A stretch of 28,423 bases of DNA from Thermoproteota archaeon (GTDB taxonomy: Archaea; Korarchaeota; Korarchaeia; Korarchaeales; Korarchaeaceae). Below are positions 5,180 to 14,870 of this stretch, one piece after another. The stretch is taken from assembly GCA_037917625.1 (NCBI GenBank), contig JAVCBY010000010.1, positions 1 to 28,423 on the forward strand, written 5' to 3'. The notes under the pieces are model-generated. The model made no database searches, had not been told where the DNA came from, and worked only from the letters and a program-made list of their open reading frames with translations. The translations under genes were made by a program, and so were the position numbers. Every line of letters starts with the position of its first letter. The first letter of the stretch is position 1.

Positions 5180-5536
5180 TTGAAGTACAAGCAGGTGATA
5201 GTGGTGAGGAAGGACTTAGGGATGAGCTGCGGGAAGATAGCTGTTCAAGTAGCTCACGCCTCACTTGAAGCTGCTGAGATATCTAGAAGGGAAAATCCGG
5301 ATCTATATAAAGCTTGGAAGGGGGAAGGAGCTAAGAAAGTCGTACTTGAGGTTAGGAGTGAGGAGGAGCTCATTGAGATCTACAGAGAAGCTTCAGATGA
5401 GGGGCTAGTATCAGTCTTGATAAGGGACGCAGGGTTGACTGAGATCGAGCCTGGGACGGCGACAGCTGTTGGGATAGGACCTCATGAGGAGGAAAAGATA
5501 GATAAAATTACTGGGAAACTCCCATTGTTGAGGTAA
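5180..5536 (+). CDS. pth2: Peptidyl-tRNA hydrolase Pth2
   Basis: KQVIVVRKDLGMSCGKIAVQVAHA, KKVVL, DAGLTEIEPGTATAVGIGP; TTG at 5180 follows a GGAGG RBS. Confidence 0.96.
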   Translation: MKYKQVIVVRKDLGMSCGKIAVQVAHASLEAAEISRRENPDLYKAWKGEGAKKVVLEVRSEEELIEIYREASDEGLVSVLIRDAGLTEIEPGTATAVGIGPHEEEKIDKITGKLPLLR

Positions 5537-5646
5537 CTTCGTTAGAAACTCCTTAATATCGAAGCTTGCTTGAAAGCCCTTCAGAAGAGGGATTGAACCC
5601 GCAACTGTTACGATGAGTTTAAATATTCCCCTCGGAGGAAAGAGGG

Positions 5647-5817
5647 ATGGTCGAGTGCGCTATCGAGGGATGTCAGGAGGAGGCGAAGAAGGAGGTGGAC
5701 AGGTCTTACTTACCCGTCATACAGAGCCTGAAGCTGAAGCTCAAGGCTGGTGATTGGAAGAAGATTCCCCTATGTAAGAAGCATTATAAGATCGTTAAGG
5801 AAGCTAAGGAGCTCTAA
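5647..5817 (+). CDS. 56-aa Zn-finger-like small protein (not in the ORF track)
   Basis: MVECAIEGCQEEAKKEVDRSYLPVIQSLKLKLKAGDWKKIPLCKKHYKIVKEAKEL*: CxxxxC...CxxH ligands, host-like codons, TTTAAATA upstream at ~5618. Confidence 0.82.
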   Translation: MVECAIEGCQEEAKKEVDRSYLPVIQSLKLKLKAGDWKKIPLCKKHYKIVKEAKEL

Positions 5818-6047
5818 TGAACTCTCGATTATCATAAGCTCCCCCGAATTCCCATCATGAGAGTTGGAGCATAAGCACTGAGCTCAGAATTTTGAGGGGC
5901 TTCATGGAGCAAGGACATTCTTTGCAGGGAAGTTCAGGAGAATTGATCCGACATTTCAGCAGCATAGCCCTAATTTGGGCTTTCATAGAGGCGAGAAGCA
6001 TTATCAAAGCTTGACCTCTACTCCCTTCTCAATTCCCCTTGATTTAT

Positions 6048-6306
6048 CAAAGTTTTCGCCAGAAAACTCACACCATTCGGGTGGGATGGATGCGAAAATT
6101 TAAAAACTAAAGAGCCCAATTAGTTTGAGGATGTTCCAATGACCTATGAAGCATCTGCTGAGGTGGATAAAAGAGAATAGCCCATGGGGTAACGAGCTCT
6201 ATGGGATGGAGGAGATGTGAGCCCCTCGAACCAGCAGATGAGGAGGTAGGCGCAAAGCCTACTCTAAACGCTGGAAGCCCATACCCTTCAGGGGTGGGTA
6301 GCTCAC
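6048..6306 (+). mobile_element. Non-autonomous IS200/IS605-family derivative (PATE/MITE-like) with no intact tnpA or tnpB
   Basis: TTTAT target motif at 6043-6047. Left subterminal hairpin CTCAC-A-CC-ATTC-GG-GTGGG (6067-6085) and right hairpin CCCAT-A-CCC-TTCA-GGG-GTGGG (6278-6298) share one architecture. The element ends in TCAC, with no TSD. Confidence 0.8.
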
Positions 6307-6869
6307 CTACTTATCCTCACTATCATCAGTTCATGGAAAGCTAGCTTCCTCCTCAAGCATACCTCAGCTTTGAACCCCATTTTCTCAGCTTTTCTCAAAG
6401 TCAGCTCCGGGAGATTGAAGTCAGCATGCAGTATTAGGGCCTTCCCTCTCATCAACCTGGGTAGATCATCGATGAGAGCATCTATGAGCTCTCTCCCCCT
6501 CCTCCCCCCAGCCCATCTCGAGTCCCCCCTTCCCGGCAAGTAAGGTGGGTTGAAAGCTATCAAGTCGAATGAAAGATCTCTGAAGTGCCTCGTCATGTTC
6601 CCTTGGACTACATGCACTTCGAGACCATTCAGCTCAGCGTTCCTAGAGGCTATTAAGCATGACCTAAGGGATATATCGCTAGCCACTGTGCAGCATCCCC
6701 TCTTAGCCATCTCTATCGCGACTATCCCGCTCCCAGTCCCGAGGTCGAGGCATACCTTACTCGATAGATCCTGATCTAAAGCATCTAGCATCAGTAAGCT
6801 GTCCTCAGCCGGCCAGTAGACTTGATCGTCCTTAAGGAGCTTCAATCCCCTAACTTGCCAGATAGCCAA
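6303..6869 (-). CDS. HemK2/PrmC-like release factor glutamine methyltransferase
   Basis: VYWPAEDSLL, LDLGTGSG, FNPPY, WAGGRRGR. Confidence 0.92.
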   Translation of the reverse strand: MAIWQVRGLKLLKDDQVYWPAEDSLLMLDALDQDLSSKVCLDLGTGSGIVAIEMAKRGCCTVASDISLRSCLIASRNAELNGLEVHVVQGNMTRHFRDLSFDLIAFNPPYLPGRGDSRWAGGRRGRELIDALIDDLPRLMRGKALILHADFNLPELTLRKAEKMGFKAEVCLRRKLAFHELMIVRISR

Positions 6870-7573
6870 GCTATCACTTCCCTCACTTCCTCAGGGCTCA
6901 TGTGATAGGGCCTCCTCTCAGCATGAGGCAGCCCATCGATATCCTTCAAGAGGGGCTTGAGTGAGTTCTTGAGCTCTCTCTTCCTCCTCGAGAATACGAG
7001 CTTACAGTACTTCAATATCTGATCCCTCAATTCATCCTGCTTCGGCTCTATTACCAATATAGCTGAATCCACCTTAGGAACGGGGCTGAAGGACCTCCTA
7101 TCCACTATGGAGACGAGGGATACCTTTAGGAGGAGGGATGCTATCACTGAGAGGCTCCCATACCTCTCAGTTCCCGGTTTTGCAACTAACCTCTCAGCGA
7201 ACTCCTTCTGAAGAGTTAAGACGGCTCTCTTGAATTCACTCCTAGCCAATCCTATTATGAGTTGAGATGAGAGGTAATAAGGTGGATTGGATGCTATTTT
7301 CTCCACTCTCAGGGGGAGGAGGTCCCTGATATCAGCCTTAACTATCTCGACCCTCTCATCCCCCTCGAACCTCTCCCTCAAGACTTCGACGAGCCTCTCA
7401 TCTTTCTCGACTAATATAAGCTTCTTAGGATCCCTAGATAGGATCTCCTCACTCAAATTTCCAGTCCCAGCACCTAGCTCAATTACCTCATCCCCTCTCA
7501 CATCTAGCAAGTCAGCTATGAGCTTTATCCACTTCTCGGACACCATCATGTGTTGCCCTAGCTTAGCTCTCAT
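6842..7573 (-). CDS. ksgA: 16S rRNA adenine dimethyltransferase KsgA/Dim1
   Basis: KLGQHMM, ELGAGTGNLS, SNPPYYLSS, QKEFAERL, YGSLSV, FSPVPKVDSA; start placed at ATG 7573. Confidence 0.95.
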   Translation of the reverse strand: MRAKLGQHMMVSEKWIKLIADLLDVRGDEVIELGAGTGNLSEEILSRDPKKLILVEKDERLVEVLRERFEGDERVEIVKADIRDLLPLRVEKIASNPPYYLSSQLIIGLARSEFKRAVLTLQKEFAERLVAKPGTERYGSLSVIASLLLKVSLVSIVDRRSFSPVPKVDSAILVIEPKQDELRDQILKYCKLVFSRRKRELKNSLKPLLKDIDGLPHAERRPYHMSPEEVREVIAWLSGKLGD

Positions 7574-14785: not shown

Positions 14786-14870
14786 TAGCCCCGGGCGGGT
14801 TCGAACCGCCGTCTCAGGCTCCAGAGGCTTGCGCTAAATTCTGCGTCCTTGACCGCTAGACGACGGGGCT
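14786..14870 (-). tRNA. tRNA-Gln(CTG) with a 12-nt intron at position 29/30
   Basis: Reverse complement: AGCCCCG TC GTCT AGCGGTCAA GGAC G CAG[AATTTAGCGCAA]GC CTCTGGA GCCTG AGAC GGCGG TTCGAAC CCGCC CGGGGCT A; A1-U72 pair; TATA (TTTATAA) at 14895-14889. Confidence 0.9.

Follow-up and report, generated by a model that had tools for sequence, protein, structure and literature searches.

The window analysed here, a stretch of 28,423 nucleotides (nt), is contig C25 of the metagenome-assembled genome (MAG) of a Thermoproteota archaeon of the family Korarchaeaceae (GenBank assembly GCA_037917625.1, contig JAVCBY010000010.1; 1.22 Mb in 116 contigs, 83.9% complete). On its + strand, positions 6048-6306 are occupied by a 259-nt element that adjoins the pentanucleotide TTTAT (6043-6047, +) at its 5' side and overlaps at its 3' end a methyltransferase gene of the hemK2/MTQ2 family (6303-6869, - strand; TIGR00537 hemK_rel_arch, 126.7 bits with a cut-off of 87). 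Its other neighbour is a small zinc-ribbon-like open reading frame (ORF) at 5647-5817 (+). Read in the + direction, the element comprises a left end with one or more imperfect subterminal hairpins (6048-6098), a predicted archaeal promoter, the remnant of a tnpB start, a 36-nt linker (6142-6177) and a 129-nt segment (6178-6306) corresponding to the scaffold of a TnpB guide RNA, or omegaRNA. As detailed below, it is a palindrome-associated transposable element (PATE) derived from a tnpB-bearing insertion sequence (IS), and it would encode a guide RNA alone.

A BLAST search with positions 5820-6340 as the query revealed nine copies of the 259-nt unit in the genome, and an nhmmer profile search of the same genome returned these nine and added none more divergent. 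Five full copies (C25, C41, C29, C35 and C24) are 93-100% identical to the window copy, the C69 copy is truncated at its 5' side and lacks the left-end hairpin and the TATA box, and three divergent copies (C27, C107 and C14) show about 71% identity to that of the window. TTAT stands immediately 5' of nine of the ten full copies examined, namely seven of the eight in this genome and the two tnpB-bearing elements L013 and L055 described below; in the C35 copy, TTAT sits 2 nt farther upstream of the element. At the other extremity, TCAC (6303-6306 in the window, the right-end cleavage motif) forms the final bases of all nine copies and of 43 of the 44 aligned tnpB-linked relatives, the remaining row being cut one base short. 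An inverted-repeat search of 6048-6306 found no terminal inverted repeats, none linking both termini; the only inverted repeats are internal (6050-6059/6092-6101, 6152-6160/6232-6240 and a palindrome at 6178-6191). Imperfect subterminal hairpins with similar arms are present on the same strand at both ends, at about 6068-6086 on the left and 6278-6298 on the right. When folded as single-stranded DNA (ssDNA), the window left end has a z-score of -2.4 and the right end of only -0.6; the corresponding values for L055 are -2.7 and -2.5. With 259 nt, the element is too short to encode a transposase, and its coding capacity is limited to a 13-codon stub. The lack of terminal inverted repeats and of target duplication, TTAT/TCAC ends and subterminal hairpins are hallmarks of IS200/IS605 derivatives of the PATE type. 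The 6048-6306 unit is thus, with very little room for doubt, a non-autonomous IS200/IS605-type element, an internal-deletion derivative of a tnpB-only IS of the IS1341 type. A classical miniature inverted-repeat transposable element was also considered and ruled out, as the unit has neither terminal inverted repeats nor a target-site duplication.

The boundaries of the element are documented by natural alleles that lack it. Contigs of four public hot-spring DNA runs were compared with positions 5500-7000 of the window at a likeness of at least 88%. A contig of run X3 (884 nt, 1 + 7 differences, 228 nt on its shorter side) joins position 5853 to 6307 with 11 letters between them, and a contig of run X1 shows the same empty junction, with 30 nt on its shorter side. 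These 11 letters correspond to window positions 5854 and 6038-6047, hence TTTAT stands directly before 6307, and no differences are listed at 6307-6357 in the empty allele of either run. Since the empty allele joins TTTAT to 6307, it confirms where the element begins and ends and that no target duplication took place. The original prediction, made from the sequence alone, had set the end of the element at 6306, with TTTAT as its left flank, and it had invoked TTTAT-flanked empty hemK alleles as possible targets; these limits agree with the natural contigs, and such an allele does exist in X1 and X3. A second X1 contig covers the junction of unique sequence with the left end (5824-6067), so X1 contains both alleles, as contigs of the filled side and of the empty junction occur together in this run.

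The insertion is silent for the neighbouring gene. In the empty allele the hemK2 stop codon is TAA, complementary to a part of TTTAT, and in the filled allele it is TGA, supplied by the element through the TCA at 6303-6305. Both alleles end with Ser-Arg-stop, the Arg codon being changed synonymously, and the HemK2 protein is unchanged. The three closest congeners are all devoid of the element: G017 carries TTAT followed by the same flank, and G012 and G016 carry other sequences. The empty allele additionally lacks positions 5855-6037 (183 nt), a segment that is unique in the host genome and shows no microhomology at its edges. Since this segment is partly conserved in the spacer of G016, the closest congener, it represents ancestral spacer removed by a separate deletion and is not part of the element.

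To which tnpB-bearing elements the ends belong was examined in related genomes and in metagenomes. A DNA search of 61 genomes (the host's own and relatives) gave matches in 10, nearly all of them confined to the final 130 nt of the element, and only two of the 20 congeners searched match it, with one match each. At locus L013 of G030, a genome of the same family, both ends match, 1.2 kb apart: the left flank is TTTAT, the left end is 78% identical, the right end with the scaffold 89% identical (L013:1502-1630), and the terminus is TCAC. Between them lies an ORF for a 419-residue RNA-guided TnpB (NF040570, 138.8 bits with a cut-off of 100; PF07282, 68 bits), the nearest solved structures being Cas12f (9nzq, E = 1.7e-12) and ISDra2 TnpB (8bf8, E = 1.4e-6). 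Metagenome contigs were then scanned with an alignment of three such TnpBs, which gave 80 loci. In one of these, L055, a full-length tnpB is flanked by a left end and a scaffold with 89% and 94.6% identity, respectively, to those of the window element; the scaffold stretch, L055:1806-1934, lies directly behind tnpB and matches 6178-6306 over 129 of 129 nt. In full-length elements, this stretch also codes for the conserved C-terminal tail of TnpB, so that the 129-nt scaffold of the window consists of tnpB C-terminal tail codons and the right end. Such an overlap of tnpB with its own omegaRNA is the usual arrangement. For the divergent copies of the host genome, the tnpB-linked relatives over the scaffold are L099 and L100 (92%) and L090 (89-91%). 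Full-length tnpB elements with the same ends, which the original prediction had expected elsewhere in the genome, were thus found in a related genome (L013) and in a metagenome (L055), and none was found in the host's own 83.9%-complete assembly. The central claim, that promoter and scaffold were kept and tnpB deleted, holds: both ends are common to L013 and L055, and the scaffold covaries.

Several features of these relatives are worth recording in their own right. The tnpB ORF of L013 crosses the right end (L013:1630-1653) and stops 23 nt inside the flanking DNA; therefore, the last residues of this TnpB depend on the insertion site. The divergent copies C27:14519-14755, C107:338-575 and C14:389-632 combine an L055-like left end (92-96% identity) with a scaffold of the other lineage (L090/L099/L100), and left ends and scaffolds appear, from these alignments, to have been exchanged as modules. 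TnpBs 74-84% identical to that of L013 (L134-L164) occur in Korarchaeia-related genomes, Bathyarchaeia, Odinarchaeia, Baldrarchaeota, Terraquivivens, Culexmicrobium and other Thermoproteota, with weaker relatives (about 62-67%) in Methanomethylicales and Thermococci. This distribution, in records that are nearly all MAGs, suggests a wide horizontal spread.

Covariation of the scaffold was assessed in two alignments. The first contained 24 sequences, the copies of the host genome and those from related genomes. RNAalifold predicted 29 pairs in it, 19 of them with compensatory changes. For a 31-pair structure, 94.9% of the alignment cells are paired, compared with 80.4% in shuffled alignments, and double changes occur in 19 of the 31 pairs against 11.5 in shuffles (none of 500 as high), controls in which the structure was slid along the alignment giving 3-11. 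The second alignment joined the window to 44 distinct tnpB-linked metagenome scaffolds (45 sequences). These 44 are the loci among the 80 with an end-to-end + strand BLAST match to the scaffold, after removal of duplicates; 25 of the 80 loci, with a partial scaffold match or none, were excluded. Window positions 6178-6306 align over their whole length with the terminal 129 nt of all 44 elements. Over both alignments RNAalifold gave 29-32 pairs, with 17-19 compensatory, and on the 45 sequences it added a long-range helix between GTGAGC (6217-6222) and GCTCAC (6301-6306). In the resulting 36-pair structure, where this helix forms a pseudoknot with helix 2, 98.3% of the cells are paired as compared with 85.6% in shuffles, and double changes affect 19 of the 36 pairs against 11.2 in shuffles (again 0 of 500 as high; slid controls, 4-8). 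The covariation check proposed with the original prediction is therefore passed in both the 24- and the 45-sequence alignments, each with 19 doubly changed pairs. G-U pairs are frequent on the + strand, for instance GU:20 and UG:43 in helix 1. Since these would become C-A mismatches on the other strand, the structure is that of a tnpB-sense, + strand RNA.

All seven helices hold at least one compensatory pair, and the window sequence itself forms all seven. Helix 1 (6181-6190 with 6196-6205) has 10 pairs, six of them compensatory, with 98.9% of cells paired. Helix 2 (6209-6212 with 6224-6227; four pairs, two compensatory) contains in its loop the 5' arm of the pseudoknot, whose six pairs include two compensatory ones and are formed in 98.5% of cells. 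Helix 4 (6231-6235 with 6270-6274) encloses helix 5 (6242-6245 with 6262-6265) and helix 6 (6249-6251 with 6257-6259), and the three jointly account for 12 pairs, seven of them compensatory in the 45 sequences. The right-end hairpin (6277-6299) is the last helix of the scaffold in the RNA and, in ssDNA, the presumed recognition hairpin of the transposase TnpA; its four outer pairs were counted, two being compensatory, and its inner pairs differ between sequences with insertions and deletions. The three hairpins that had been read from the single sequence (6181-6189/6197-6205, 6246-6251/6257-6262 and 6278-6298) are present at these places and correspond to helices of the covarying structure. 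As judged by comparative alignment, 6178-6306 is a conserved, strongly covarying omegaRNA scaffold with a predicted seven-helix, pseudoknotted fold.

Rfam does not add a family to this picture. At gathering scores, only tRNAs pass in the window, and a permissive search of 5950-6400 gave as its best hit a chance match to a long non-coding RNA (E = 4.1). Among the tRNAs, the one at 14786-14870 (-) scores 42 bits with Rfam and is reported by ARAGORN as of undetermined type with a four-base anticodon; it is probably an intron-containing archaeal tRNA.

Upstream of the scaffold, the element has preserved the layout of the 5' region of a tnpB gene. In tnpB-linked left ends the order of motifs is TTAT, an A-rich segment with AGAAAAC, a hairpin, GATGAAT, a TATA-like box, GGGATGTTCCC and the start codon. 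From the 56 of the 80 loci that have GGGATGTTCCC with at least 130 nt upstream, 52 distinct left ends were drawn; a strict TATA-like hexamer is found 25-45 nt (mostly 27-31) before the motif in 37 of them, and most of the other 15 show, by eye, one-letter TATA variants. The window carries the corresponding box, a B recognition element with a TATA box (BRE/TATA) at 6092-6106 (+; TATA, 6099-6106), precisely where it had been predicted, and the TATA box is 29 nt before the motif at 6128-6137. This initiator-like motif and the vestigial tnpB start ATG (6139-6141), together 6128-6141 (+), align with the tnpB-linked elements. The start had earlier been assigned to the ATG at 6131; an ATG is indeed present there, but it falls within the initiator-like motif and is out of frame with the parental tnpB, and the vestigial start is the ATG at 6139. 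Counted with promoter region and tnpB start, the part kept from the parental left side reaches from 6048 to about 6141. The 13-codon stub ORF that begins with it (6139-6180, +; TAG at 6178-6180) has no homology beyond the start region. From its conservation, the BRE/TATA box can be inferred to be the archaeal promoter of the former tnpB, and the usual archaeal spacing between TATA box and start predicts a transcription start near 6128-6131. The predicted RNA would extend for about 180 nt to 6306, plus any run into the flank.

The motif GGGATGTTCCC, which directly precedes the tnpB start in the L054-L133 left ends and lies at 6128-6137 in the window, shows nucleotide conservation far above its surroundings. 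It may act as an initiator, a 5' hairpin, or a processing or binding site. The 36-nt linker between left end and scaffold (6142-6177, +) gave no BLAST match in the 80 tnpB loci, and its local alignment to L055 is weak (score 27) and not trusted. The linker stretch 6152-6160 shows perfect 9-nt complementarity to 6232-6240, the 5' strand of helix 4, and could compete with folding of the scaffold; about 0.2 such 9-nt pairs are expected per 296 nt, by our estimate, and the complementarity may be due to chance, since the C29 and C24 copies are mismatched there.

The same combination of promoter and scaffold was encountered in related genomes. Among the 24 loci of these genomes with scaffold matches, four have a full tnpB upstream (L013, L022, L020 and L017, the last frameshifted), three have a C-terminal remnant of 56-91 residues (L016, L018 and L029), and 17 consist of the scaffold tail only. 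Of these 17 loci, 16 have sequence upstream of the tail, which was inspected. Ten of them show, by eye, TTAT, a left-end hairpin, a TATA box, the initiator motif, a short linker and a scaffold that starts with its first helix. The linkers are unrelated between PATE families, and all of them join within a few nucleotides of the 5' edge of the scaffold. Moreover, two separate scaffold lineages in the host genome both show this layout. The recurrence of the layout and the two own lineages therefore suggest, at the level of sequence comparison, that derivatives with a promoter and the whole scaffold formed repeatedly or survived selectively. A single ancient origin followed by drift of the linkers is the alternative.

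Potential partners and targets were looked for in other genomes and in the communities. In congeners, strong PF07282 hits occur in eight of 20 genomes and PF01797 hits over the cut-off in two of 20; in G017 genes of the two families are adjacent. Contigs that match the scaffold from 6177 on and are preceded by the TnpB motif RDLNACIN, as seen by eye, were found in X1 (three) and X2 (two). As these contigs join the scaffold to a TnpB motif, tnpB-linked relatives of at least 88% likeness live in the same communities. The bins covering the scaffold have summed depths of 370-670 compared with 13-23 for the flanks, values that are sums over organisms and not copy numbers. The 20 nt that follow the element (6307-6326, +) would, by position, form the guide of a read-through omegaRNA and are antisense to the last codons of hemK2. 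In the genome, no full-length match to the 20-nt flank of any of the nine copies occurs outside its own locus, except that the C35 and C69 copies have a common flank; the other matches are partial, of 14-17 nt, and none has TTAT in the preceding 6 nt. The common right flank of C69 (C69:170-298) and C35 (C35:152-411) extends for at least 20 nt, about 38 nt by eye, before the two diverge. Both copies are close to contig starts; a duplicated segment, variation between strains or an artefact of assembly could explain them.

We therefore turn to what such an element might do. In the reading that we favour and consider likely, it is a guide-scaffold PATE from a tnpB-bearing IS, a would-be stand-alone omegaRNA that would home with the help of TnpB acting in trans. 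The left-end promoter would fire near 6128-6131, and a + strand RNA would cross the scaffold and position 6306 into the flank. The product would be a stand-alone omegaRNA whose guide is formed by the 3' 16-20 nt starting at 6307. A compatible TnpB, provided in trans, would trim the leader of about 50 nt to leave the 129-nt scaffold with its guide; the complex would then cut TTAT-flanked empty alleles such as those of X1 and X3, whereupon the element would be restored by recombination, in a model of homing or retention. Movement of the element to new places would require a Y1 TnpA in trans.

A number of observations weigh against this reading, or at least against its operation at present. The host assembly contains no TnpB, PF07282 having just two hits, both below threshold and in unrelated frames, and PF01385 having none; a tblastn search of the host genome with L013 TnpB found nothing but the scaffold tails of the nine copies. 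Neither does the assembly contain a Y1 TnpA (PF01797, no match), and no fragment of tnpB or tnpA was seen in it, contig ends included, an absence that is not proven for either protein, since the assembly is 83.9% complete and in 116 contigs. With neither TnpB nor TnpA found there, the RNA may currently be partnerless in its host. The closest full-length relatives belong to other genomes or to metagenome contigs and not to the host organism. Several of the tnpB-bearing 'parents' may themselves be decaying: in L055, the closest full-length relative, tnpB is without a start codon where the start is otherwise conserved (L055:690-710), and that of the congeneric element L017 (L017:393-1617) is frameshifted near codons 80-100. 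Much of the covariation could predate the loss of tnpB, having arisen in scaffolds then still linked to the gene, and the near-identical copies of the host genome have too few changes to show selection after the deletion. In X1, the filled and empty alleles have similar depths (12.6 and 14.5), with no sign of active drive. Current function with a TnpB in the host organism is, as far as sequence can tell, a tentative proposition that we rate on the doubtful side.

A first alternative is that the element is an inert relic, a PATE moved only by TnpA in which the scaffold was kept by an accident of deletion or because some of it is required as the right end, and of which any RNA has neither partner nor function in this genome. 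The failure to detect TnpB or TnpA in the assembly, the lack of a second genomic target for any guide and the coexistence of filled and empty alleles at similar depth all suit it, and haloarchaeal PATEs with a C-terminal coding remnant are considered non-coding in the available part of their description (PMC3119063). It accounts less well for the form of what was kept. Several PATE families with unrelated linkers retain the scaffold from helix 1 on together with a correctly oriented promoter, two scaffold lineages of the host genome both have this layout, and the window copy satisfies all seven consensus helices. Furthermore, the right end recognized by TnpA is usually far shorter than 129 nt, as in IS608. 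On this evidence we regard an inert relic as unlikely, though the most serious of the alternatives, and prefer the guide-scaffold reading. An effect on the host that is independent of TnpB, through a mobile promoter or a cis-antisense RNA modulating the 3' end of the hemK2 mRNA, would fit the geometry of the locus, where a + strand transcript would be antisense to hemK2 from 6303 on, and the fact that no nuclease partner was found. The antisense relation, which had been pointed out at the outset, is correct by geometry only. However, the other copies are found in varied contexts and are not consistently oriented towards neighbouring frames, the conserved structure is one of a tnpB-linked scaffold rather than of an antisense regulator, and the insertion is silent for HemK2. 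A regulatory role of a hemK2 antisense RNA is accordingly unlikely, and a host-level effect in general seems very improbable.

A conserved covarying structure with its own promoter might also be taken for a non-mobile structured-RNA gene family of the host. This idea is contradicted by the empty allele and by the tnpB-linked scaffolds: at 44 loci this sequence is found as the 3' end of a tnpB gene, the boundaries are precise, the target motif is conserved and presence of the element is polymorphic, there is no Rfam match, and only two of 20 congeners match, once each. We give it next to no weight. Beyond the guide-scaffold reading itself, a bolder extension would see guide-only elements as the dominant, selected hyperparasite form of this transposon family in hot-spring archaea, reduced to a promoter and a guide scaffold, which in the host genome would have multiplied to nine copies and would persist there with no TnpB or TnpA of the host's own, being supplied with nuclease and transposase by viruses, plasmids or co-resident strains, or would see their RNAs as co-opted by the host, for instance as 3'-end antisense RNAs; this extension is speculative and, in our opinion, quite improbable.

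The locus offers a tidy natural case for studying the role of stand-alone omegaRNAs, combining a recurrent layout, two lineages, a silent insertion at a stop codon and coexisting alleles, and the model of homing or retention becomes testable in a natural thermophilic population. The element could further be regarded as a compact guide cassette with its own predicted promoter for work with thermophilic TnpB. The current picture of TnpB biology is unchanged by it. The concept, both of stand-alone omegaRNAs and of omegaRNA-bearing PATEs, is already in print; what is new here is the lineage, the layout of archaeal promoter and scaffold across families, the apparent lack of a resident effector and the documented empty allele.

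Stand-alone omegaRNAs of OMEGA systems were reportedly noted by Altae-Tran et al. in 2021. According to the accessible part of PMC10691335, stand-alone omegaRNAs with no effector or transposase gene occur in genomes that contain effector loci and act in trans with compatible effectors, and their biological role is stated there to be unknown. The present element resembles them in being a mobilised guide scaffold with a transposon end and no effector or transposase gene. It differs in that no effector is present in the assembled 84% of the genome, whereas those described in that part of PMC10691335 have one, and in that its scaffold is of an archaeal TnpB type, preceded by the predicted BRE/TATA promoter of the former tnpB. 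Another parallel is provided by the PATE-like elements of the ISGst families of Geobacillus stearothermophilus, described in the available portion of the preprint of Meers et al. (PMC10055086), which states that PATEs frequently code for an omegaRNA dependent on TnpB provided in trans. Like the present element, they are IS200/IS605 derivatives that encode no protein, and their ends are also those of tnpB or iscB elements. The Geobacillus elements, as that portion describes them, are bacterial, number about 47 related elements, coexist with resident TnpA and TnpB, and have an omegaRNA seen by small-RNA sequencing, whereas here the element is archaeal, has nine copies and has no TnpA or TnpB in the assembly.

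Among TnpB systems with known structures, ISDra2 (8bf8, 8exa and 8h1j) has an omegaRNA of similar construction, made of the tnpB 3' end and the right end, with stem-loops, a pseudoknot and a 3' guide. The parent-type TnpB is here only distantly related to it by sequence. The target-adjacent motif (TAM) of ISDra2 is TTGAT, and that of the present elements is TTAT-like. A pseudoknot and triplex architecture of omegaRNAs is quoted in the available section of PMC11579290, which also describes SisTnpB1 of Sulfolobus islandicus, a TnpB of a thermophilic archaeon whose activity was established by experiment, with a right-end omegaRNA and a T/A-rich 5' TAM, TTTAA. Compared by description only, SisTnpB1 differs from the present case in its TAM and in belonging to a full tnpB element, not a guide-only one. 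Finally, archaeal PATEs have been described, in the accessible text of PMC3119063, as arising by core deletion of IS605-type elements, and one of them retains C-terminal coding sequence. This one, HqIRS71 of Haloquadratum walsbyi, is like the window element in having an extended terminal segment that includes an IS1341-type C-terminal coding sequence. It was described before omegaRNAs were recognized, as non-coding debris, and the likeness drawn here is one of description only.

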